A DNA stretch of 64,000 nucleotides from Sphaerochaetaceae bacterium. Lineage in GTDB: Bacteria > Spirochaetota > Spirochaetia > Sphaerochaetales > Sphaerochaetaceae. The stretch covers positions 10,145 to 74,144 of the forward strand of contig JBMNGW010000009.1 of NCBI GenBank assembly GCA_050950025.1, in the 5' to 3' direction. The notes under the pieces were generated by a model. That model was not told the DNA's origin. It did not search any database and saw nothing but the letters and a program-made list of their open reading frames with translations. The position numbers and the translations under genes are program-made. The first letter of the stretch is position 1, and each line of letters begins with the position of its first letter. Of the stretch, positions 1-14,439 are shown one piece after another.

Positions 1-682
1 CAAAGGGGAGCCCTGTTCTTCCCATTCCGCTTTGAATCTCATCGCATATCAACAATAAGTTGTGTTTTTCACACAGTTGGGTAAGAGCATCCCAGTACGA
101 CTGAGGCCCTTGATGAATACCCCCTTCCCCTTGAATAACTTCCACCATAATGGCACAGGTATCTTCAGTAATAGCATGCTCTAAAGCCTGCAAATCGCCA
201 AAGGGGACAAAGTCAAAGCCCCCAAGCATTGGCCCAAAAGAGCTTTGATACTTAGTTTGGCCTGTGGCGCTTAAAGAGCCGTAGGTTCTGCCGTGAAAGC
301 TGTGCTCCATACAGATAATCTGATTTTTCTGTTGCCCATACTTACGGGCAATTTTAATGGCAGCTTCATTGGCTTCAGTCCCGCTATTGCAAAAAAAGAC
401 TTTAGACAACTGTGTTAGCTCAACAATTCGTTTGGCCGCTTTGATGGCGTACGGGTTCCAATACAAGTTGGACACATGCACCACCCCCTGATCAAGGACT
501 TTTTTTAAAGCAGCAAGATACCCCTTATGGCCGTAGCCCAAAGCATTGGTAGCAATTCCTCCCACCAAATCAAGGTAGCCCTTATGTTGATCATCATACA
601 AAGTCCGCCCCTCTCCTTTAACAAACACAAGAGGAAATTGGGCATACGTATTTAAAAAAACAGCTTTACCTTGTTCTATCAT
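1..682 (-). CDS. argD: acetylornithine aminotransferase, N-terminal part (gene runs off the left edge)
   Basis: Reverse translation from ATG (682-680) gives MIEQGKAVFLNTYAQFPLVFVKGEGRTLYDDQHKGYLDLVGGIATNALGYGH..., typical of class-III PLP aminotransferases. AGGAGA RBS lies upstream. It is last in the argC-argJ-argB-argD run on the same strand. It is absent from the ORF track because it is truncated. Confidence 0.85.
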   Translation of the reverse strand, partial: MIEQGKAVFLNTYAQFPLVFVKGEGRTLYDDQHKGYLDLVGGIATNALGYGHKGYLAALKKVLDQGVVHVSNLYWNPYAIKAAKRIVELTQLSKVFFCNSGTEANEAAIKIARKYGQQKNQIICMEHSFHGRTYGSLSATGQTKYQSSFGPMLGGFDFVPFGDLQALEHAITEDTCAIMVEVIQGEGGIHQGPQSYWDALTQLCEKHNLLLICDEIQSGMGRTGLPF

Positions 683-2784: not shown

Positions 2785-3843
2785 CTACAACGGGAAGGGG
2801 GCAATCATATCGATTCCTGCCGACTCGGCAAATCCCAAAGCAATATTCATATTCTGCACAGCCTGCCCCGCAGCCCCTTTGACTAAGTTATCTAAAGCTC
2901 CGCAGGCAATCAGGCGATTTGTTCTCTTATCGACTGTAAAGCCGATATCAACATAGTTAGAACTTTTTACCCAACGTGTTTGGGGGAAAACTCCCGGTTC
3001 AAGCATCCTAATAAACTGCTCTTTGTCATAATGCTTCTTATAACTGGCCTCAATCTCTGACAGACCGACCCCTTCTTGCAAATTGGCATACACAGTGGCC
3101 AAAATTCCTCTGTTCATCGGCACCAAATGGGGAGTAAATTGGAGAACCACATCTTTAATCGACTTTCCGTGTGTTAAAGAGAGGGCCAATTGTTCTTCAA
3201 TTTCCACAGTGTGGCGATGGGTTCCCACCGCATAGGCCTTCAATGTTTCATTTACTTCGCAATACAGTGAATCGAGCTTCTCTCCCCTTCCTGCTCCCGA
3301 AACTCCGCTTTTAGCATCAATGATGATGCCTTTACTCTCAATTAGCCTGTCATAAAGTAGCGGATGGAGCGTTAAAATAGCGGTGGTGGTGTAACATCCT
3401 GGATTGGCAATTAACCGAGAAGCGGCAATGTCACTGCGATACAGCTCTGACAGACCATAAACAGCTTGGTTTAGTAATTGCGCAGAGCCGTGGGAGGTGT
3501 TATACCACTGTTCATACACTGCCACATCTTTCAATCGATAATCGGCTCCCAAATCAATAATCAGACATTTTTTTAGAATCTCGCTATTGAGCTGGTGGCT
3601 CGAAATACCATGAGGTAATGAAAGAAAAAGTACATCGCAACGATCTGCCATCTGAGCTATGTCGGCAGAGTCGAGCTGTTGATGATATATTTTACCAAAA
3701 TTAGGATAGACACTCTGATAGGGCGAGCCTGCATGACTGTGAGAGCCGCACAGTATGCTTTGAATGTTTGGATGGGCCACCAGCAGGCGCATAAGTTCGC
3801 TTCCTGCATAGCCGGTTGCTCCAATAACTCCAACTGTAATCAT
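2785..3843 (-). CDS. argC: N-acetyl-gamma-glutamyl-phosphate reductase
   Basis: The ORF track starts at 3930, but the family-typical N-terminus MITVGVIGATGYAGSEL begins at ATG 3843. Active-site region NPGCYTT is present. Confidence 0.9.
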   Translation of the reverse strand: MITVGVIGATGYAGSELMRLLVAHPNIQSILCGSHSHAGSPYQSVYPNFGKIYHQQLDSADIAQMADRCDVLFLSLPHGISSHQLNSEILKKCLIIDLGADYRLKDVAVYEQWYNTSHGSAQLLNQAVYGLSELYRSDIAASRLIANPGCYTTTAILTLHPLLYDRLIESKGIIIDAKSGVSGAGRGEKLDSLYCEVNETLKAYAVGTHRHTVEIEEQLALSLTHGKSIKDVVLQFTPHLVPMNRGILATVYANLQEGVGLSEIEASYKKHYDKEQFIRMLEPGVFPQTRWVKSSNYVDIGFTVDKRTNRLIACGALDNLVKGAAGQAVQNMNIALGFAESAGIDMIAPFPL

Positions 3844-4027
3844 GTGTTTATCTCCCTTATACTCGTATTTACTGTATATATATTCATTTTCTTTTTTTGT
3901 ATACCCATTTTCATGCATATTTATGCACAAATAGCCTTTTTGTTCCCGTTATACGCTAAAAAGAGATTTCAAGTCAACCATTTGTCGCATTTGCAACATA
4001 AATAGATGGGACAGGGCCCCTTTTTTA

Positions 4028-4501
4028 GTGTATGATGCCGCTATGAGAAGAGAAGACAGAGCACAAAGTGAAGCTTTTGCCCGCCGCATCTTTGATGAAG
4101 CGGAGTACGGAGTATTATCCCTCGTTGACCAAGATAATCGACCCTACAGCATCCCTGTTTCTCCCGCTATTGAGGGTAACACTATCTACATCCACTCCGC
4201 AGTTGCGGGAAAGAAATTGGACCTTATTGCATCCAACAATTACGTAAGTGTCACCTGTGTGGGAACAACTAAGCTCCTTCCTGCTGAATTTGCCACCTTG
4301 TATGAATCGGCAACAGCGTTTGGTAAAGCTAAAATAGTCACCGACGATGCTGCCAAACGCCAGGGATTAATGGTTATCGCCCGCAAATACTCGCCCGAGT
4401 ACACAGAAGAAGCCCAACAATACATCACCAAAAAAAATGCTCTTGTAACCCTGATTCAAATTGAAATAGAAACCCTGAGTGCCAAAGCACGCCTAATATA
4501 A
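4028..4501 (+). CDS. pyridoxamine 5'-phosphate oxidase family protein, Nim-like (nitroimidazole-reductase family)
   Basis: 157-aa ORF collinear with the NimA architecture (MRRxxR..., PYxIPVS, IYxHSAxxGxKxD, KYSP). The start could be the internal Met at 4043. Confidence 0.7.
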   Translation: MYDAAMRREDRAQSEAFARRIFDEAEYGVLSLVDQDNRPYSIPVSPAIEGNTIYIHSAVAGKKLDLIASNNYVSVTCVGTTKLLPAEFATLYESATAFGKAKIVTDDAAKRQGLMVIARKYSPEYTEEAQQYITKKNALVTLIQIEIETLSAKARLI

Positions 4502-5090: not shown

Positions 5091-7400
5091 ATGGAAGGAA
5101 CAACCCGCTTTGACATTCAGTCGATGACTGATCAACAAATCGAACAACTAATGGGGCAGCTTAACGTCGGCCTTTCTGTCTCTGAAGCCAGAGACCTGCA
5201 AAATCGTATTCTTGGTCGCAGTCCCACATTAGCCGAGCTAATTTTGTTCGGTATTGAAGGCTCGGAACACTGTTCGTACAAAAGCAGTCGCCCCTACCTC
5301 AAACTTTTCCCCACCGACGGAGCTGATGTTATCATCGGAGCCAAAGAAGATGCCGGGATTGTCCGCATCTGTTCAGACAACCAAGGCAACGGTTATGGTG
5401 TTGTCGTGAGCCACGAAAGTCACAACCACCCCTCCCAACTTGTCCCTTACGAAGGGGCTGCCACCGGTATTGGGGGAAACATTCGTGATGTCTGTTGTAT
5501 GGGAGGCTCTGTGATTGCCGTCGGCGGTGATTTTCGCTTTGGTAATCTAGATATTCCATACAACCGTTATTTAGCCGACCAAGTCGCAGAAGGAGTTGCT
5601 GGGTATGCTAATCCCACCGGAGTTCCCGTTATTGCAGCTAATGTGCAGTTTGACCCTTCGTATAATGATAACTGCTTGGTAACAGCCGTCACATTGGGCA
5701 TTGTGCGAGAAAAGGAGATTATCCACTCCTATGCTCCATCCAATGCTGATGGGTATGATTTAATTTTAGTGGGCAAGAGCACTGATAACAGCGGTTTTGG
5801 CGGAGCAAGTTTTGCCAGTTTCGATATCTCTTTGGCCGATGAACATGTGAATAAAGGGGCCAACCAAGAACCCAATGCATTTTTGGGACGACTGTTGATG
5901 CGCGCAACTGATGAGCTGGTAGCTCTCCTTAGTGCCAAAGGTTTAATTGATCAAGTTGCCTGCAAAGATTTGGGAGCAGGCGGCATCGCCTGTGCCACGG
6001 TGGAGTTGGCTGAGGGGGGAGGCTACGGAGCTTTTGTTAATGTCGATTTAGTTCACAAAGCCAGCGATGAGCATCCCCCGTATGTAATTCTTTGCTCCGA
6101 AACGCAAGAGCGGTATCTGTGGGCGGCACCTAAGACCATTACCCCGTTGATTCTTGACCATTTCAACTCCACGTTTGCTTTGAGTGAAGTCTCCCATAAA
6201 GCTCAGGCAACTATCATCGGTCATATTACCAACTCGACTAACTATATTGTCGTTTCCGAAGGACAAGTACTCATTGATGCACCGGCAAGTGAAATCACCA
6301 AAGGCTTTTTGTACCACAGACCCTTAGGTGAGCCTCTTGCGCCTCAAGATGATCCAGTTTTGCCGCTTCCAACAGATTTGAAAAGCGTGTGGTTAGCTAT
6401 TTTGAGCCACCCCAATGTAGCTAGCAAAGAGGCTATTTACAACCGCTTTGATCGCCATGTGCAAGGTGATGTCATCCAACCTCTGGAATCTGCACAAGCA
6501 GGCATTATTACCCCCTTTAACAACCAAGAGTTTCCCCAGGAGATTCAGCAGGTGGGAGTAACTCTTAGCTGTAGTCAAAACCCCCGTTTTAACGCTATCG
6601 ATGCCTACCAAGGGGCCTATTTAGCAGTCTTACACTCTTTTGCCAATACGGCTGCCAGCGGAGCACAAGCGATTGCTATCAGCGACTGTCTTTGCTATGG
6701 GAATCCTGAAAATCCTGTTGCAATGCGACAGTTCGCCGACGGGGCTAAAGGGGTGGCCGATGCTGCTACCGATTTGGGTGTTCCGGTAATAGCAGGCAAT
6801 GTTTCGCTGTACAACGAATCTAAAGATTCGGCAATTGTTCCCAGCCCCATGATTGCTATGATTGGCAAATTTGACGATGTGCAAACAGCCTTACCGATGC
6901 AATTGCAGCAAGCTGGATCAACATTGCTCCTCATTGGCCAAATTGCAAACGAGTGCGGAGGAAGCATCTATTGGGACCTCTATGACAAAAGGGGAAGTTC
7001 CCTACCCCAAGCTAATGCTTCAGAGATGAAAAAAGCTGCCGCCGCCATTGCAAAATTGGCCGCAACAAAAAAGATTGCCAGCTGCCGCACCATTGCTGAA
7101 GGGGGCTTAGCTACTGCAGTAAGCCTCATGGCCTTTGGCTCAGAGTTTGGCTGTGCATTGAGCACTCAAGAAACTCTGCGCGATGATCAGTATCTCTTTA
7201 GCGAAAGTTTGGGCTTTATTGTGGAAGTGGAAGCTGAGCATCTGCAAACAGTTCAACAGGTTATAGAGCAAGCTAAGCTGCCGTACACCCATATCGGTAC
7301 AACAACTGCCAAGCAGAGCATTACTTATAAGGATATACATATTGACCTCATTGAAGCTCAAAGCCTCTATAACACCGCTTTGACGACAATGTTGCAGTAG
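5091..7400 (+). CDS. purL: phosphoribosylformylglycinamidine synthase subunit PurL (small PurL type)
   Basis: 769-aa ORF with EHCSYKSS, SHNHPS and duplicated AIRS/AIRS_C-like halves. GGAG RBS at 5081-5084. Confidence 0.93.
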   Translation: MEGTTRFDIQSMTDQQIEQLMGQLNVGLSVSEARDLQNRILGRSPTLAELILFGIEGSEHCSYKSSRPYLKLFPTDGADVIIGAKEDAGIVRICSDNQGNGYGVVVSHESHNHPSQLVPYEGAATGIGGNIRDVCCMGGSVIAVGGDFRFGNLDIPYNRYLADQVAEGVAGYANPTGVPVIAANVQFDPSYNDNCLVTAVTLGIVREKEIIHSYAPSNADGYDLILVGKSTDNSGFGGASFASFDISLADEHVNKGANQEPNAFLGRLLMRATDELVALLSAKGLIDQVACKDLGAGGIACATVELAEGGGYGAFVNVDLVHKASDEHPPYVILCSETQERYLWAAPKTITPLILDHFNSTFALSEVSHKAQATIIGHITNSTNYIVVSEGQVLIDAPASEITKGFLYHRPLGEPLAPQDDPVLPLPTDLKSVWLAILSHPNVASKEAIYNRFDRHVQGDVIQPLESAQAGIITPFNNQEFPQEIQQVGVTLSCSQNPRFNAIDAYQGAYLAVLHSFANTAASGAQAIAISDCLCYGNPENPVAMRQFADGAKGVADAATDLGVPVIAGNVSLYNESKDSAIVPSPMIAMIGKFDDVQTALPMQLQQAGSTLLLIGQIANECGGSIYWDLYDKRGSSLPQANASEMKKAAAAIAKLAATKKIASCRTIAEGGLATAVSLMAFGSEFGCALSTQETLRDDQYLFSESLGFIVEVEAEHLQTVQQVIEQAKLPYTHIGTTTAKQSITYKDIHIDLIEAQSLYNTALTTMLQ

Positions 7401-7410
7401 GAAGGGTCCC

Positions 7411-8475
7411 ATGAAGCAAGAAAAAAGCATCAGTTATAAAGATTCGGGAGTTGATATCACAGAAGGCAATTTGGCTGTAGAGCTGATGAAAGAGGCCGTG
7501 GCTTCCACCTATTCGCCCCGCGTCATCGCTCCTATTGGCAGTTTTGCCTCGATGTATGATATCAGTACCCTAGTCAAAGAGTATAAACATCCTGTGTTGG
7601 TCCAAAGTGTGGACGGAGTGGGCACCAAAGTCACGGTTGCCCGCATGGTTGGCGATTTCTCTACTATCGGAGAGGACCTCTTTTATGCCTGTGCCAACGA
7701 TATAGCGGTCCACGGAGCCAAGCCGTTGACCTTCCTTGATTATATTGCCAATGACGTACTTGATGCTCGTGTGGTCGCTAGCATTGTTAAAGGCATTGCC
7801 AAAGCCTGTGTTGAGTGCTCAACATCGTTAGTCGGTGGCGAAACAGCCGAAATGCCGGGAGTCTACTTAGCAGGTGAGCATGATTTAGTGGGACTGATTA
7901 CCGGCATAGTTGAAAAAGAGGATTTGATTCAAGGCCACAACGTCCAAAAAGGGAACGCTATTATTGGCATCGGATCTAGCGGTTTACACACCAACGGTTT
8001 TTCTTTGGCGCGCAAAATTTTGTTTGAGCACGGTAAACTGACAGTGGATCAACCGCTGTATACAGACCCCAGCCACACAATAGGAGCGGCTCTTTTAAAA
8101 CCGCATGCCAATTATATCAACGGCGTTCAAGAGCTTTTGGCTAAAGGGGCCCCCATTCTTTCAATGGCCCATATTACCGGCGGCGGCTTAGTGGAAAATG
8201 TACCGCGAGTTATTCCTCAAGGATTAAGCGCCCGTTTCTACCCTTCACGATGGAGCGCCCCGCCTATTTTCCAAGCCTTACAGCAGATTGGGAACGTCAA
8301 CTTTAGTGAAATGTACCGAACATTTAATATGGGAATCGGGCTCGTCATTATTGTGGAGCAAAGCGATAAAGAATCTGTTTTAAAGATGGCACAACAGGCC
8401 TTTAATCTTCCTGTGTGGGAAGTTGGCGAAATTGCGCAAGGAGAAAAAACATGGATCGAGGGGGTCACCGTATGA
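7411..8475 (+). CDS. purM: phosphoribosylformylglycinamidine cyclo-ligase (AIR synthetase)
   Basis: 354-aa ORF with SYKDSGVDI, DGVGTK and ITGGG motifs. Confidence 0.93.
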   Translation: MKQEKSISYKDSGVDITEGNLAVELMKEAVASTYSPRVIAPIGSFASMYDISTLVKEYKHPVLVQSVDGVGTKVTVARMVGDFSTIGEDLFYACANDIAVHGAKPLTFLDYIANDVLDARVVASIVKGIAKACVECSTSLVGGETAEMPGVYLAGEHDLVGLITGIVEKEDLIQGHNVQKGNAIIGIGSSGLHTNGFSLARKILFEHGKLTVDQPLYTDPSHTIGAALLKPHANYINGVQELLAKGAPILSMAHITGGGLVENVPRVIPQGLSARFYPSRWSAPPIFQALQQIGNVNFSEMYRTFNMGIGLVIIVEQSDKESVLKMAQQAFNLPVWEVGEIAQGEKTWIEGVTV

Positions 8476-9731
8476 AAGCGCGCTTAGCAGTCATTGAATT
8501 TCCCGGAACAAATGATATCACCACAGTGGTAAAAGCAGCAAAAAAAGCCAATATTGAGGCAGTTGTGTACCGTTGGAATGAAAAAGAGCTCGATTTTTCC
8601 TCCTTTGATGCCTATGTGCTCGCCGGTGGATTTTCATTTCAAGATCGCAGCCGAGGGGGCATCATTGCCGCTTTGGATCCGCTGATGGAAAAGCTCAAAT
8701 CTGAAGATGCTAAAGGCAAGCCCATTTTGGGAATCAACAATGGAGCCCAGATTCTCCTTGAAGCAGGCCTTGTTCCCGGCTTTGATCGCTATGAAGTAGC
8801 CGGCTCTTGCGCCCCTAATTTGCAACTGGTAGACAATACTGTACTCGATGCTAGTTTCTACCATGCCACCGTCTTTGTTAAACCGCTGAACAGCTCCCTG
8901 TTTTTTGAAAATACCGTTATCGAAGGGTATATCGGCACAACCGAAGGACGCTTTGTTTTTGAACCCGAAGTGCTGAAAATGCTCTATGAAAATAAAGTGG
9001 CTATGCTGCAGTACTGCGACTTTGAAGGTACTGTCGCTCAAGAATTTCCCACCAATCCCACTGGATCGATGGACAACCTGGCAGCAATAGGCAACCACAA
9101 AGGCAATGTGTTGGCCTCCATGGTCCAACCAAAACCCCCTGCCCTTTCTCAAATGCTACTGGCCATGGTAACAAACAAGAAGCTAAAGAGCTCCTTTGTA
9201 CCGTTTACGCTGCCTTCCAGAGCACCGAGTAAGAGTATTCGCCAAGCAACCCAAAAAGATGCCGAGCTTATCGTAGGAACAGCCATCACTGACGACACCT
9301 CTTTGAGTGTTGAAAAACGGCTGCACTTAATGGGCATTGCTGTTCGGATACAGCGCTTTATCCACTGGGAAATTGGCAAACAAGAAAACGCCTCTGCCAA
9401 ACAATGGGAAGCTGATGTAGCTACAGCCAAAAAGAGCTTTGAGCTGTATAACCACAACAAAGAGTATCTGCTTCAAACACTTCCCTCCAGCGATCTGGCC
9501 TTTTTAACCCGCTGCTCTGCTACTGAAGATGCATTAGGAAGGAAAACGGCCCAAGTGCTTCAAAAGCACTATGGTATTACGACATTTGCCTCTCTTAGGC
9601 ACAGCGTGTTGTGGCTTTTAACAGTCGATGAAAACGCCACTTTCGATAAAGAGGAAGTGATTGAAAAAGCTCTTGCTACCAATATCTTCAATAACCCAAT
9701 CAGTCACTGGAGAGAACATTATGAGCATTGA
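8472..9731 (+). CDS. purQ: PurQ-like (class I glutamine amidotransferase fold, triad degenerate) fused to two PurS-like repeats
   Basis: The family-typical start MKARLAVIEFPGTND is at ATG 8472 (4-nt overlap with the purM stop); the ORF-track start at 8415 is rejected. The N-terminal ~235 aa align to PurQ but read GINNGAQ instead of GxCNGFQ. The C-terminal ~155 aa (from about 9255) contain two PurS-like units ending NPISHWREHY. Confidence 0.8.
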   Translation: MKARLAVIEFPGTNDITTVVKAAKKANIEAVVYRWNEKELDFSSFDAYVLAGGFSFQDRSRGGIIAALDPLMEKLKSEDAKGKPILGINNGAQILLEAGLVPGFDRYEVAGSCAPNLQLVDNTVLDASFYHATVFVKPLNSSLFFENTVIEGYIGTTEGRFVFEPEVLKMLYENKVAMLQYCDFEGTVAQEFPTNPTGSMDNLAAIGNHKGNVLASMVQPKPPALSQMLLAMVTNKKLKSSFVPFTLPSRAPSKSIRQATQKDAELIVGTAITDDTSLSVEKRLHLMGIAVRIQRFIHWEIGKQENASAKQWEADVATAKKSFELYNHNKEYLLQTLPSSDLAFLTRCSATEDALGRKTAQVLQKHYGITTFASLRHSVLWLLTVDENATFDKEEVIEKALATNIFNNPISHWREHYEH

Positions 9732-10704
9732 CAGAGATTCCTACCGCTCAATTATTCGCAACCATCTTCATCAGGGAGTCAGCCATACCGATTTTGCTTT
9801 ACCGGAGCATTACAGCGGTAAAGTACGCGAGCGCTACCGCCTTGATGAGCAGCGGTTGCTCATTATTACCACCGACCGCCAAAGTGCTTTTGACCGTATT
9901 TTGGCTACTATTCCCTTTAAAGGAGCGGTGTTAAACCTCGTTTCTGCTTGGTGGTTTGAGCACACTTCCCCCATTATTGCCAACCACCTACTGCAAATTC
10001 CCCACCCCCAAATAGCGGTGGTCAAAGAGTGTTCTGTCTTTCCAATTGAATTTGTGGTTCGGGGGTATATTACCGGCACTACCAACACCTCACTGTGGAC
10101 AGTTTATAACAGCGGCCAAAAAGAGTACTGTGGCCATGTGTTACCCGAAGGGTTGGTGAAAAACCAGAGACTTGCTAAACCCCTGCTCACTCCCACCACT
10201 AAAGAAAAGACGCACGATCGTCCCATTTCACCTGCTGAGATTGTACAAGAGGGGTGGATGAGCCAAGCCGATTGGGACGAAGCAGCAGCTAAAGCGCTGG
10301 AACTGTTTGCCTACGGTCAAAAAACAGCTTTGGAACATGGGTTAATCTTAGTCGACACAAAGTATGAATTTGGCAAGGATAAAGAGGGAAATATTATCCT
10401 GATTGATGAAATTCATACTCCCGACTCCTCCCGCTATTGGCTGGCCGACAGCTATGAAAGCCGCTTTGCATCCCAACGGGAACCTGAGTCGATCGACAAA
10501 GAGTTCCTCCGTCTTTGGTTTGCCCAAAACAGCGATCCTTACCATGATAAAGAGTTGCCTGTGGCTCCTGAAGAGTTGGTAGTTGAACTGTCGCTGCGGT
10601 ACATCATTTTGTATGAGATGATAACCGGCAAACCATTTCCTTTCCCCAGCGGCAGCTCAATTGAGCAGGCCGTATCAGATATTATAAAGGAGGCATCAAA
10701 GTGA
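9721..10704 (+). CDS. purC: phosphoribosylaminoimidazole-succinocarboxamide synthase (long form)
   Basis: ATG 9721 (MSIDRDSYRS...) is chosen over the 9661 track start. SAICAR synthetase motifs YSGKVRERY, TDRQSAFD and LVDTKYEFG are present. Confidence 0.9.
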   Translation: MSIDRDSYRSIIRNHLHQGVSHTDFALPEHYSGKVRERYRLDEQRLLIITTDRQSAFDRILATIPFKGAVLNLVSAWWFEHTSPIIANHLLQIPHPQIAVVKECSVFPIEFVVRGYITGTTNTSLWTVYNSGQKEYCGHVLPEGLVKNQRLAKPLLTPTTKEKTHDRPISPAEIVQEGWMSQADWDEAAAKALELFAYGQKTALEHGLILVDTKYEFGKDKEGNIILIDEIHTPDSSRYWLADSYESRFASQREPESIDKEFLRLWFAQNSDPYHDKELPVAPEELVVELSLRYIILYEMITGKPFPFPSGSSIEQAVSDIIKEASK

Positions 10705-11099
10705 ACAGTGAAGTCATTATAATTATGGGTTCTGAAGCAGATCGTCCTTTTGTCGCTTCTATCACTGCCGAACTAACACTCCTGGGCATCTCATATAAAG
10801 AGTATGTCGCTTCGGCTCATAAACAGCCGCTAAAGGTGTTGCAGATTCTTCAGGAACACGAAAAACAGTCTCGGCTTGTTTACATAACGGTTGCCGGTCG
10901 TTCCAACGCTCTTTCGGGCTTTGTGGCAGCCAATTCAATTGCTCCGGTTCTGGCCGTCCCCCCGTTTGCCGATAAGCTCGATATGCTGGTTAATATCCAT
11001 TCAACACTGCAAATGCCTTCCAATGTACCGGTAATGACAGTCCTTGATCCGCGCAATGCTGCTTTGGCTGTCCAAAGAATTTTGGGAGTTGCCCAATGA
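10701..11099 (+). CDS. purE: AIR carboxylase, class II PurE-like
   Basis: GTG start with AAGGAGG RBS at 10687-10693. IIIMGSEAD N-terminus. Contains SAHK (class II signature) rather than the class I SAHR. No purK in the operon. Confidence 0.85.
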   Translation: MNSEVIIIMGSEADRPFVASITAELTLLGISYKEYVASAHKQPLKVLQILQEHEKQSRLVYITVAGRSNALSGFVAANSIAPVLAVPPFADKLDMLVNIHSTLQMPSNVPVMTVLDPRNAALAVQRILGVAQ

Positions 11100-12520
11100 G
11101 CGGAATTGTTGGCATCATTGGTTCTTCTGAGGTTGCCACTCAGCTCTACGACAGTCTTATCCAATTGCAACACCGCGGCCAAGATGCAGCTGGTATCACC
11201 ACCTGCGATCAGCGGTTCCACTTTAAAACCGGTTTGGGGTTTGTCCGCGATATCTTTTTAGAACGGCACATCAAGCGGCTTAGCGGAACGATGGGAATAG
11301 GCCATACCCGCTACTCCACCAACGGAGATGCAAAAAATAGTGACTCTATTCAACCTTTTTGGAACAGCGCCCCTTTTGGCATCTCATTTGCTCACAGCGG
11401 GGCTATTGTCAATGTCAAAACCCTTACTGAGATGGTCATTAACCAACGGCGCCGTTACTTAAACACCTCTACTTGTAGCGAAGTATTAATGCAATTATTT
11501 TCCTCTTCGCTTGAAACAGGGCTTATTACGGATGCCAAGCGCCCCTTTTTTGATATCGTAACAGAATCGGTTGCTGAATTGATGCAATTGGCCCAAGGTT
11601 CTTACTCTGTTATCTCCATCATCAAAGACAAAGGGCTGGTAGCCTTCCGTGATCCTCATGGTATTACCCCTTTGGTGTTAGGAGAGCGCCAAGGTCCGGA
11701 TGGGACAAGCGAATATATTGTCTCTAGTGAAAACACGATGTTTTACATGCTTGGCTATACCCTGCTGCGCGATATTCACCCCTCCGAAGTCGTCTTTATT
11801 GAACCCGATGGCACACTGCATTCGACCATCATAGGCAAAAAAGAATTTAATCCCTGCATTTTTGAATATGTGTATTACTCGCGCCCCGATGCGATGGAGA
11901 ATTCTATCAGTGTTTATCGCAGCCGCCTGCGAATGGGAGAGAACCTAGGCAAAAGATGGAAACAACAGTACGGCGATTTACGCCCTGATGTTATCATTCC
12001 TGCCCCGGCTACGGCCAACACTATGGCCTTGGCAATGGCAAAAGAGTTACAGACCAACTACTCAGACGGATTGTACAAAAATCCTTTTATCGGGCGCACT
12101 TTTCTAATGCCCGATCAACAACAGCGCAGTCAATCGGTACGCTACAAACTAGTTCCTCAGCAACTGGAAATTCGCAACAAAACGGTCATGATAGTCGATG
12201 ATAGCATTGTACGGGGAACCACCAGTCGTGAAATTGTCAGTATGGTTCGCAACTTTGGTGCTAAAGGGGTCTATTTTGTCAGTGCTTGCCCTCCGGTGAT
12301 ACAACCTTGTTTCTACGGAATCGACATCCCTTCAAAAGAAACTCTTATTGCAGCCAATAACACCGTTGAACAGATACGCAACTACCTTCAAGCCGACATC
12401 CTCTTTTTCCAAGACTTAGAGGATTTAATAGAAGCAGTTACCCGCAAAGGGGAACACAACATCGACATGCCCTGCCATGCTTGTTTGGGCGGTCCCTACT
12501 GTCAAGGAGGGCCGAAGTGA
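11096..12520 (+). CDS. purF: amidophosphoribosyltransferase, Fe-S type, with a non-canonical Ntn glutaminase site
   Basis: 474-aa ORF collinear with PurF (GHTRYST, PRTase loop MIVDDSIVRGTT, C-terminal CHAC Fe-S ligands). The N-terminus is MSGIVG rather than MCGIVG. Confidence 0.88.
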   Translation: MSGIVGIIGSSEVATQLYDSLIQLQHRGQDAAGITTCDQRFHFKTGLGFVRDIFLERHIKRLSGTMGIGHTRYSTNGDAKNSDSIQPFWNSAPFGISFAHSGAIVNVKTLTEMVINQRRRYLNTSTCSEVLMQLFSSSLETGLITDAKRPFFDIVTESVAELMQLAQGSYSVISIIKDKGLVAFRDPHGITPLVLGERQGPDGTSEYIVSSENTMFYMLGYTLLRDIHPSEVVFIEPDGTLHSTIIGKKEFNPCIFEYVYYSRPDAMENSISVYRSRLRMGENLGKRWKQQYGDLRPDVIIPAPATANTMALAMAKELQTNYSDGLYKNPFIGRTFLMPDQQQRSQSVRYKLVPQQLEIRNKTVMIVDDSIVRGTTSREIVSMVRNFGAKGVYFVSACPPVIQPCFYGIDIPSKETLIAANNTVEQIRNYLQADILFFQDLEDLIEAVTRKGEHNIDMPCHACLGGPYCQGGPK

Positions 12521-14439
12521 AACATCTGCTAGTACTTGGCAGCGGAGCCAGAGAACACGCTATTATTACTCAATTGGCCTATTCAAATACGCTGAGAGCT
12601 GAGCATACAGCCCTGCATGGACTGGGAACCACTAACAACCCCGGCATCAGTGCCATCTGCCAAGATTCGGGGGGAACTTATGCTATTGGTCCCATTACCG
12701 ACAGCTCTTTTGTAGTTAAGCATTGTCTGAAACTCAACATCTATTTGCTGATTATTGGCCCGGAGGCCCCTTTGGAAGCAGGAGTAGCCGATGCGGCTAG
12801 GAAAGCTGGCATATTGGTTATGGGACCGGGGAAAGCTGGGGCACGCTTAGAAAGTAGTAAATCTTTTACCCGGGAGTTTCTTAATACCCATCTTCCTTTC
12901 TCTTCGCCCACCTATTACACCATCAGAACGATGGAGCAAGCCAAAGAGGCTCTTAGGTCATTAGCCGAATCGTATGTGGTAAAAGCTGATGGCTTAGCAG
13001 GGGGTAAAGGGGTACTGATTTGGGGAGAGCACTTATTTAGTGATCAAGAAGCATTGGCCCAATGTGCAACTTTTTTGAGCAAAAACGGGCAGTGCGTCAT
13101 TGAACAAAAACTTACCGGCCAAGAATTCTCCCTTTTAACGCTTACCGATGGTACCACCGCTGTCCATTTACCTGCTTTACAGGACCATAAACGGGCCTTT
13201 GACAATGATGAAGGGCCCAATACGGGGGGAATGGGCAGTTACACCGACAAAGACGGTACGCTCCCTTTTCTTACTGCGTATGAGGAGCAAGTGGCTAAAG
13301 CCTATAACGAAGCCGTTATTAAAGCGATGGACTTTCCTTTTAACGGGGTTCTGTACGGAGGGTACATGGCAACAGCCGAAGGGGTGAAAATTATCGAATT
13401 CAACACCCGCTTTGGCGATCCCGAGGCTTTGAATTTGATGCCGCTTCTTAAAAGTGACGGCATTGAACTTTTCGAAAGGGTAGCTAACGGCACCCTTGCC
13501 GATTATCACCTGCAGATGGACAGTCGCCCCTCATTAGCTTTATACATCGTCCCCCAAGCTTACCCCACTTCTTCTACTGTGGGCGATGAGCTAAGCTTGG
13601 CTCCAAATGAGAAAGAGGTGAGCCTTTACTACGGCTCAGTTGATGAAAAAGAGGGCAAACTCTTTAGTGCCGGCTCGCGCAGTGTGGCGTATGTTGCAAT
13701 TGCCGACACTTTGCAACAGTGTCGCCTCTTGTTGGAAAAACCCCTTTCTCAAGTCAAAGGGAATTTTCGCTGGCGCACCGATATTGGTTCAAAAGAGGTG
13801 TTGCGTCAAAAAATAGAGCATATGCACGTATTACGAAAACCGCTGAGAATAGCTGTTTTAGGTTCTACCAACGGCACTGACATGGACTATATTGTCCAAG
13901 AGATTGCCAAAGGGACAGTCCCTGCAGAAATTGCCGTGGTGATTTCCAATGTGTGTGAGGCTGGTATTTTACAAAAAGCCAAAGCGTATGGGATTGCCCA
14001 CTTTTGCGTCGACCAAAAAGGGAAAGAGCGCGATGCTATAATCTCGGCTCTGTGCAAAGAGCATGCTGTCGATTCAATCCTTTTAATTGGGTATATGCGT
14101 ATTTTAAGTCCCCAATTTTGCCACGACTGGGAAGGTAGAATTATTAATGTTCATCCCTCCTTGCTTCCCGATTTTGCTCAAACAATGGACCAAGACACCC
14201 ATGCTCTGGCACTGAAGCGATATCGGCAAACGGGTAACGATCGCACAGGTTGCACAGTCCATATTGTGACTAGTGAATTGGATAGCGGTCCGATTTTAGT
14301 GCAAAAAGCGCTACGCATTGCTTCTGACGATACTCCTCAATCGCTGAAAAAACGGGTCCAAGTGCTGGAAGGAGAGGCTTTGAGTGAAGCGTTGAAGCGT
14401 GTATATCCTGTTGGCGGTAATTTTAACAAACTGCTTTAA
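12517..14439 (+). CDS. purD: fusion protein: phosphoribosylamine-glycine ligase (PurD) plus phosphoribosylglycinamide formyltransferase (PurN)
   Basis: GTG 12517 overlaps the purF stop (GTGA), with AGGAGG at 12506-12511. The N-terminus VKHLLVLGSGAREHAI and an ATP-grasp core mark PurD. From about 13840, LRIAVLGSTNGTD...INVHPSLLP...TGCTVHIVTSELDSGPIL marks PurN. Confidence 0.88.
   Translation: MKHLLVLGSGAREHAIITQLAYSNTLRAEHTALHGLGTTNNPGISAICQDSGGTYAIGPITDSSFVVKHCLKLNIYLLIIGPEAPLEAGVADAARKAGILVMGPGKAGARLESSKSFTREFLNTHLPFSSPTYYTIRTMEQAKEALRSLAESYVVKADGLAGGKGVLIWGEHLFSDQEALAQCATFLSKNGQCVIEQKLTGQEFSLLTLTDGTTAVHLPALQDHKRAFDNDEGPNTGGMGSYTDKDGTLPFLTAYEEQVAKAYNEAVIKAMDFPFNGVLYGGYMATAEGVKIIEFNTRFGDPEALNLMPLLKSDGIELFERVANGTLADYHLQMDSRPSLALYIVPQAYPTSSTVGDELSLAPNEKEVSLYYGSVDEKEGKLFSAGSRSVAYVAIADTLQQCRLLLEKPLSQVKGNFRWRTDIGSKEVLRQKIEHMHVLRKPLRIAVLGSTNGTDMDYIVQEIAKGTVPAEIAVVISNVCEAGILQKAKAYGIAHFCVDQKGKERDAIISALCKEHAVDSILLIGYMRILSPQFCHDWEGRIINVHPSLLPDFAQTMDQDTHALALKRYRQTGNDRTGCTVHIVTSELDSGPILVQKALRIASDDTPQSLKKRVQVLEGEALSEALKRVYPVGGNFNKLL

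Follow-up and report, generated by a model that had tools for sequence, protein, structure and literature searches.

A PurQ protein extended by two predicted PurS-fold units, with an altered glutaminase triad, in a Sphaerochaetaceae purine operon

The textbook formats of formylglycinamidine ribonucleotide (FGAM) synthase are a large PurL; a small PurL acting with PurQ and PurS; and, in some archaea, a PurS-PurL chain. The purine operon considered here raises the question of what stands in for PurS beside a small PurL when no separate purS gene can be found. It lies in a stretch of 64,000 nucleotides (referred to as the window, at its full length) from a Sphaerochaetaceae bacterium (assembly GCA_050950025.1, contig JBMNGW010000009.1, positions 10,145 to 74,144), and it carries a small purL two genes upstream of a purQ gene that extends well beyond its glutaminase domain. 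Here we describe this gene, named purQ-(purS)2, whose C-terminal tail is predicted to fold as a PurS pseudo-dimer. The layout recurs across several phyla; what sets the copy in the window apart is the loss of the catalytic triad from the glutaminase domain in front of a tail that evolves at a normal rate.

The gene and its parts, in window coordinates, are as follows.

8472..9731, + strand: purQ-(purS)2 gene, 419 amino acids, with a glutaminase domain, a linker and two PurS-fold units (open reading frame and translation)
8472..9146, + strand: PurQ-type class-I glutaminase domain, residues 1-225, apparently catalytically dead (Pfam GATase_5, TIGR01737, Foldseek, conservation, relative rates)
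8736..8738, + strand: codon AAC, Asn89 at the position of the nucleophile Cys (GICNGAQ changed to GINNGAQ; alignment to 3d54_D)
9126..9134, + strand: Gln219-Pro-Lys221 at the position of the triad His-Pro-Glu (MPHPER changed to MVQPKP; aligned with structures of PurQ and of large PurL)
9147..9260, + strand: linker, residues 226-263, partly helical, the lowest-confidence stretch of the model
9261..9470, + strand: PurS-fold unit 1, residues 264-333 (family motif I-T-D-N...H-W-E...N-K-E; both AlphaFold2 models)
9495..9719, + strand: PurS-fold unit 2, residues 342-416 (family motif L-V-R..D..G...L-W...N-P; both AlphaFold2 models)

Architecture and predicted fold of the tail

The Pfam GATase_5 model (PF13507) matches residues 2-221 of the protein (E=5e-27, 95 bits against a cut-off of 27) and extends no further than residue 221. 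The ~195 residues beyond it form two units of ~70-75 amino acids, in agreement with a preliminary description of the locus, made from the sequence alone, according to which the PurQ frame continues into two units of about 75 amino acids. AlphaFold2 models were built for the full protein with 71 homologues and for the tail alone (residues 258-419) with 35 homologues. The full-length model is confident for all domains (predicted local distance difference test [pLDDT] 90.4; predicted template modelling score 0.90), the tail-only model reaches a pLDDT of 94.8, and in both the tail consists of two consecutive β-α-β-β-α-β units at residues 264-333 and 342-416. Within the linker region, which has a helix at residues 224-234, the pLDDT of the full model is 61-75 in blocks 231-260; the linker is poorly conserved across the family except for its G-D-x-x-F-x-S-M start.

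When the full-length model was compared with known structures by Foldseek, the glutaminase domain dominated the result (best match T. maritima PurQ, 3d54_D) and nothing could be read from it about the tail, which was therefore folded separately. With the tail model as the query against the PDB, the top 16 matches were all large PurL proteins (Salmonella 1t3t and its mutants; human PFAS, 9nb3 and 9n9w), covering 157-160 of the 162 tail residues with template modelling (TM) scores of 0.64-0.71, E values of 6e-6 to 3e-3 and a probability of 1.00 each; large PurL alone reached that probability. The single PurS chains 1vq3 (T. maritima) and 2cuw (T. thermophilus) each matched one tail unit, with TM scores of 0.53-0.57 on the target and probabilities of 0.54-0.63, and other folds were interleaved around these rows at probabilities of 0.02-0.54. 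ACT-family structures were absent among the 50 matches listed. In large PurL, the N-terminal domain is a homologue of the PurS dimer (PMC3261824, PMC7124931), and from this homology, together with the length of the matches and the hits to PurS, we infer that the match falls on that domain.

A free PurS gene was sought with PF02700, which finds nothing at E<=10 in the whole 1.53-Mb, 91% complete assembly and matches 12 of 14 control genomes; the absence of a free purS noted in the preliminary description thus extends to the assembly. The same model has no match over its cut-off in 14 of the 15 other fusion-bearing genomes, and in one fusion-bearing genome a faint subthreshold hit lies inside the fusion gene itself. 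Since genomes with the fusion are without a free PurS, the tail stands where PurS would otherwise be needed. The fold of the tail, profile matches that are collinear with PurS (see below), the lack of a free PurS and the small PurL in the operon together support the earlier proposal that a PurS pseudo-dimer carried on PurQ mimics the N-terminal domain of large PurL. Judging from the predicted structure, we hold it to be very probable that the tail is a PurS pseudo-dimer that serves PurL.

Several results of sequence comparison weigh against this assignment. PF02700 gives the tail 13 bits (E=0.12) against a cut-off of 22.2, so that the profile search proposed in the preliminary description returned no significant hit, an outcome which that description had itself named as a refutation; an NCBIfam scan of the tail found no match; and a profile built from 35 tails, compared with all PDB sequences, retrieved no PurS, its only match being a chance one to an Xre antitoxin (E=2). 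Free proteins made of two tandem PurS units were not matched by the hidden Markov model (HMM) of the tail either, and hhalign gave only a P value of about 1e-3 for them. To these may be added that Foldseek reports no target coordinates, which makes the placement of the tail on the N-terminal domain of large PurL an indirect one. Pfam and NCBIfam scans of the whole tail and of each half found no significant family. A derivation of the tail from free tandem PurS-PurS proteins was considered and set aside, as neither the tail HMM nor hhalign revealed a sequence bridge.

Profile-profile comparison by hhalign with 21 PurS sequences from genomes of the same phylum gave P=2e-4 over 61 columns for unit 1 and P=4e-4 over 68 columns for unit 2. 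These matches are collinear and near full length, yet weak (probability 36-45%). The two units also match each other (P=2e-5). The faint Pfam match sits in unit 1, and neither it nor the hhalign values uphold the earlier view that unit 2 is clearly PurS-like and unit 1 the more diverged. The tail showed no significant hhalign match to the N-terminal 190 residues of the large PurL proteins of five relatives; as genuine PurS fails against the same target (P=0.06), this comparison is powerless. The PurS/N-terminal domain keeps less than 10% sequence conservation (PMC7124931), and with this low conservation and the failed control with genuine PurS, the PF02700 test lacks power for the tail as well.

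We propose the following arrangement. A PurQ-type glutaminase domain would be joined by a linker of ~38 residues to two tandem PurS-fold units, and these would pack together as an intramolecular PurS dimer, the same module as the N-terminal adaptor of large PurL. PurQ-(PurS)2 and small PurL would then constitute a two-chain FGAM synthase (purine step 4) that replaces the four-chain PurL-PurQ-PurS2. In this complex, presumably a 1:1 heterodimer, the pseudo-dimer of the tail would dock on small PurL and, in the manner of the N-terminal domain of large PurL, touch the catalytic loop of the synthetase. As an adaptor, the PurS/N-terminal domain is required for both synthetase and glutaminase activity, and in large PurL, mutating the interface of the N-terminal domain abolishes both (PMC7124931).

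Distribution of the family and comparison with known FGAM synthases

A protein search with the window's sequence retrieved 2036 proteins of 410-445 amino acids, aligned over 97-100% of their length at 31-41% identity. When one genome per species was scanned, the fusion was found in at least 584 genomes from several phyla. The carriers include cultured Legionella (L. longbeachae, L. anisa, L. bozemanae, L. shakespearei, L. quateirensis, L. steelei and others), Coxiellaceae, Marinimicrobia, Opitutales and several Patescibacteria, as well as metagenome-assembled genomes (MAGs) labelled Balneolaceae, Spirochaetales and Dehalococcoidales. Across these phyla the order purL-purM-purQSS-purC is kept, and at least 66 fusion-bearing loci have purL in the same position. 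The protein of the window shares full-length collinear homology with this family and keeps the family's tail motifs ITDN, HWE, NKE, LW and NP. The fusion thus represents an old family with many members rather than something confined to the window.

A search of 1.84 billion representatives (50% identity level) with a profile built from the tail only retrieved 358 proteins. Almost all of these are PurQ-sized, with the tail near residues 270-420; the remainder are fragments and a few longer chains, and none of the 358 has the tail on a PurL-sized protein. In three longer chains (P0166, 683 amino acids; P0220, 647 amino acids; P0234, 726 amino acids), the tail is at about residues 245-405 and is followed by 250-330 further residues; these may be PurQ-(PurS)2-PurC fusions. 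In databases the family goes under the name PurQ or "FGAM synthase I", and its tail is without an assigned domain. A literature search, itself not exhaustive, found no published description of a PurQ-PurS fusion, and the PurQ-(PurS)2 layout is apparently a widespread, undescribed variant of a well-known enzyme.

Within the bacterium's own family, some genera have large PurL (open reading frames of 1212-1266 amino acids), others the PurQ-(PurS)2 operon, and in many both are absent (G002, G003, G004 and G015 against the window's genome G000, G007 and G017), which suggests that the purine operon has been repeatedly exchanged or lost there. In G017, the glutaminase part (C116:56863-57552) and the tail part (C11:5733-6197) are on two contigs (L004 and L017). 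A free tail gene in G017 was considered and rejected, since the frame of the tail runs off the locus 79 nucleotides past the match and the split looks like a contig break.

One of the nearest known counterparts is the PurL-PurQ-(PurS)2 complex of B. subtilis and T. maritima (3D54), which has the same reaction, the same three modules and the same operon neighbourhood, and whose PurQ, 3d54_D, is the best match of the PurQ domain described here. It differs in that the PurS units of the window are joined to each other and to the C terminus of PurQ, giving two chains instead of four, in that these units are too diverged for PF02700, and in that the glutaminase triad is absent. Another is the adaptor at the N terminus of large PurL (in Salmonella 1T3T and human PFAS 9N9W/9NB3). 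This domain gives the tail its best structural match, which spans almost the entire tail, and it is a PurS pseudo-dimer within one chain that forms a bridge between the synthetase and glutaminase sites (PMC7124931). There, however, the adaptor is at the N terminus of the synthetase, whereas here it is at the C terminus of the glutaminase, on the other polypeptide, and no sequence similarity between the two is detectable.

PurS is likewise hard-wired in mdPurL and other PurS-PurL fusions (methanogens, PMC3261824), where it is attached to PurL, and in the free tandem PurS-PurS proteins, where it is duplicated beside purL. In mdPurL, a PurS-like domain is fused to PurL in archaea, and the hosts are mostly without free purS (PMC3261824); archaeal mdPurL is the closest published layout to PurQ-(PurS)2. 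In these proteins, in contrast to the family described here, the partner of PurS is PurL or none at all, never PurQ, and the PurS HMM still recognizes them whereas the tail profile does not. Loci L151-L157 (genomes G130, G058, G056, G120, G097, G109 and G085) encode free-standing proteins of 155-219 amino acids composed of two tandem PurS units, both recognized by the PurS HMM; in the five of these loci where PurL was matched (L151, L152, L154, L156 and L157), small purL follows immediately downstream, and purC is upstream of them in L151 and L154. Open reading frames of 957-1045 amino acids with a PurS domain at the N terminus (PurS-PurL) also occur in the same phylum.

PurQ-(PurS)2 thus adds a further format of FGAM synthase, one that is common yet invisible to Pfam and NCBIfam. 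Where its tail goes unrecognized, purS looks "missing" and pathway reconstructions are misled. The format would also fix the PurS:PurQ stoichiometry covalently and offer a simpler two-chain system in which to study how an adaptor couples two active sites.

Loss of the glutaminase triad

In an alignment to T. maritima PurQ and 119 family members, the triad of the window's protein is changed at all three positions (C89N, H219Q and E221K); Cys is present in 118 of the 120 sequences, and His and Glu are each present in 119. Other residues of the site have changed too, for example, AHGEGR to GTTEGR. Among columns conserved at ≥90%, 27 of 87 (31%) are altered in the glutaminase domain and 3 of 23 are altered in the tail. 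Consistent with these changes, TIGR01737 scores the protein at 134 bits, under its cut-off of 177.8, and a Legionella homologue at 214.6. Elsewhere in the family the glutaminase is normally intact, and the peculiarity of the window is, by its sequence, a glutaminase that appears dead in front of a conserved adaptor tail.

The gene sequence was seen independently in contigs of three landfill metagenomes and one bioreactor metagenome, with zero differences over the covered parts, and the three altered triad codons are covered by matching contigs in 3 of the 4 runs. The sequence is therefore real. Because all contigs from these four other metagenomes are identical, no estimate of the ratio of nonsynonymous to synonymous rates is possible. 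Rates were compared with those of the closest operons, the metagenome contigs L133 and L134, which have the same seven genes, including a PurD-PurN fusion. Protein identities are as follows.

PurL: window against L133/L134, 58-60%; L133 against L134, 71%
PurM: window against L133/L134, 60-64%; L133 against L134, 71%
PurC: window against L133/L134, 59-61%; L133 against L134, 68%
PurE: window against L133/L134, 60-65%; L133 against L134, 74%
PurF: window against L133/L134, 71-73%; L133 against L134, 75%
PurQSS: window against L133/L134, 40%; L133 against L134, 58%

Relative rates were counted in the manner of Tajima, with L133 and L134 as sisters and a consensus sequence from distant orthologues as the outgroup; the numbers of unique changes are as follows.

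PurQ glutaminase domain: window 54-57, sister 15-21, p 1e-4 to 7e-7
PurS tail: window 19-21, sister 13-14, not significant
PurM, PurC, PurE: ratio of 0.65-1.55, not significant
PurL: window 108-115, sister 52-57, p 7e-5 or less
PurF glutamine domain: window 25-28, sister 13, p 0.02-0.05
PurF transferase domain: window 14-15, sister 13-15, not significant

The glutaminase domain has thus evolved 2.6-3.8 times faster than its counterparts in the sister operons; no such acceleration is seen in the tail. PurL has accumulated ~2-fold more unique changes than its sisters and is altered in 17.7% of its strongly conserved columns. The acceleration is confined to the glutaminase parts and PurL. As the triad has been lost while the tail remains under normal constraint, the protein is most likely kept as an adaptor or scaffold.

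PurF, which is better conserved than any other protein of the operon (73% identity to L133), follows the same pattern, with a glutamine domain accelerated ~2-fold and a transferase domain that is not. It begins with MSGIVG, where 56 of 57 orthologues have MCGIVG, and carries N101S at a position conserved in 55 of 57 and D127C at one conserved in 57 of 57. From what is known of E. coli PurF, we take Cys1 to be the nucleophile, N101 the oxyanion Asn and D127 the glutamine-binding Asp. A class-II glutaminase model run over the whole assembly finds PurF only, and a class-I model finds only PurQ and GuaA. GuaA (437 amino acids; C4:128284-129594 of the window's genome; L135, 430-1746, minus strand) matches only positions 1-82 of the 190-position glutaminase model, its domain being cut to ~100 residues, and it reads PVLGAGHGAT at the nucleophile elbow, without a Cys. 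In relatives, the open frames that hold GuaA have 516-555 amino acids, and the alignment begins only at residue ~83-108. GlmS (TIGR01135) and the CTP synthase PyrG (TIGR00337) were not found in the 91% complete assembly. By sequence, every recognizable class-I and class-II glutaminase in the assembly is damaged; amidase-type GatA and nitrilase-type NadE were not searched for. A shortage of glutamine in the organism was considered as a cause and rejected, because a type III glutamine synthetase-like open reading frame is present (a frame of 709 amino acids, C3:69980-70546).

Intermediate states occur in related loci. In L134, PurF and PurQ both have Cys; L018 (labelled Balneolaceae) combines Ser in PurF with an unaltered PurQ triad; and in L159 (JGI 3300015214, a MAG labelled Sphaerochaetaceae; PurQ at 218-1495, PurF at 2871-4295), Ser replaces both nucleophile Cys residues, PurQ reading GISDGAQ and retaining His and Glu, and PurF reading MSGIVG with N101S. 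The L159 protein also occurs in Logan SRR8925807 (L158). The series from L134 through L018 and L159 to the window suggests selection rather than accident. Metagenomes from anaerobic digesters, landfills, bioreactors and wastewater contain the organism, with the identical gene in those from landfills, digesters and bioreactors; such habitats are rich in ammonia. Adaptation to ammonia-rich digesters and landfills is one candidate for the selective agent; another is evasion of toxic glutamine analogues, which alkylate the nucleophile Cys.

In this genome, PurQ-(PurS)2 would survive as a PurS-type adaptor or scaffold of PurL, and formylglycinamide ribonucleotide would be amidated with free ammonia. 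Taken as a whole, the explanation that a PurQ-(PurS)2 protein has kept its adaptor, has lost its triad and probably works on free ammonia is in our view likely. For the single step that the FGAM synthase of this organism is ammonia-fed, the balance tips only slightly in favour. The accelerated PurL would fit a remodelled entry for ammonia or a relaxed coupling, and fits early decay equally well, so that it counts against ammonia use as much as for it. Further points against ammonia use are that the assembly is only 91% complete, that a glutamine synthetase is present and glutamine is hence not lacking, and that RNA runs were searched for and none was found. Work by Schendel et al. in 1989 is also said to have found that E. 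coli large PurL uses ammonia poorly, with a Michaelis constant of about 1 M. A bolder version, in which Cys-dependent glutamine amidotransfer has been given up altogether, purines are made on free ammonia and PurQ-(PurS)2 is a pseudoenzyme scaffold with the PurS tail as the selected part, we entertain tentatively and rate at somewhat below even.

The chief rival explanation is decay of the entire gene together with its tail, step 4 or the whole pathway being on its way out of a small genome of 1.5 Mb. It would account for the lost triad with nearly a third (31%) of the strongly conserved glutaminase columns changed, for the ~2-fold acceleration of PurL and its 17.7% of changed conserved columns, for the absence of the gene from many genomes of the same family and for the damage to GuaA and PurF. 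Decay would not, however, be expected to keep within the borders of glutaminase domains, as the damage does; the frame of 419 codons is unbroken and shows translational coupling to both neighbours, the AlphaFold2 model is confident for all domains, and the tail is not accelerated. PurL, PurM, PurC, PurF and PurD are moreover above their equivalog cut-offs, PurF being the best conserved in the operon, and no disrupted variants occur in the four other metagenomes. We consider decay of the gene improbable.

That the enzyme is still fed by glutamine, either from an unrecognized glutaminase or through an Asn/Gln/Lys site with a different chemistry, is a reading to which we give little credence. L159, with its Ser nucleophiles and a PurQ that keeps His and Glu, makes a working Ser-His-Glu triad conceivable, and the genome is 91% complete; in the window, however, all three triad residues are gone and not Cys alone, further conserved site residues such as those of AHGEGR have changed, and neither PF00117, PF13537 nor the protein itself as the query brought up another candidate in the genome. 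Finally, we regard it as very unlikely that the tail has no relation to PurS and is a regulatory, ligand-binding module of a generic ferredoxin-like or ACT-like kind, PurS function being dispensable or supplied otherwise. The β-α-β-β-α-β fold is a common one, and no PurS sequence model reaches its threshold on the tail, but the Foldseek matches with a probability of 1.00 are large PurL only, with no ACT-family structure among the matches listed, each unit is collinear with PurS, the genomes bearing the tail are without a free PurS, and what the tail profile retrieves from 1.84 billion representatives is almost exclusively PurQ-linked.

Catalytic residues that are lost while the domain persists are known from relatives of the enzyme. 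They have been described for the herpesvirus vGAT homologues of FGAM synthase (PMC7605207) and for the truncated PurQ-like protein Memar_1841 (PMC3261824). The viral proteins, however, have left purine synthesis, whereas the apparently dead domain of the window is part of an otherwise intact purine operon, and Memar_1841, itself a fragment, has an intact copy next to it, whereas here the domain is the only copy. If PurQ-(PurS)2 has indeed been retained for its adaptor, the window's copy is a natural experiment, in which the glutaminase appears dead and the adaptor is preserved, and it argues for a role of PurS toward the synthetase that is independent of glutamine hydrolysis. For an organism that lives where ammonia is plentiful, it would also point to purine synthesis fed by ammonia.

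The surrounding purine operon

The gene order in the window is purL-purM-purQSS-purC-purE-purF-purDN, the neighbours of purQ-(purS)2 being the following.

5091..7400, + strand: small PurL, 769 amino acids (TIGR01736, 592 bits, cut-off 525.75)
7411-8475, + strand: purM
9721-10704, + strand: purC
10701-11099, + strand: short purE, 132 amino acids
11096..12520, + strand: PurF with Cys1 changed to Ser, N101S and D127C (TIGR01134, 407 bits, cut-off 350)
12481-14439, + strand: purD-purN fusion, 652 amino acids

The ATG of purQ-(purS)2 at 8472 overlaps the stop codon of purM as ATGA, and its own stop codon, TGA at 9729-9731, overlaps the gene that begins with the purC ATG at 9721, an overlap of 11 nucleotides. 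PurL, PurM, PurC, PurF and PurD pass the NCBIfam equivalog cut-offs. PurE is below that of TIGR01162 (114.5 against 149.6); a similarly short PurE is found in L134 (132 amino acids), L133 (139 amino acids) and L159 (137 amino acids). PurD is without an attached PurN in most other fusion-bearing loci, and the PurD-PurN fusion is common to the two closest operons, L133 (653 amino acids) and L134 (666 amino acids).

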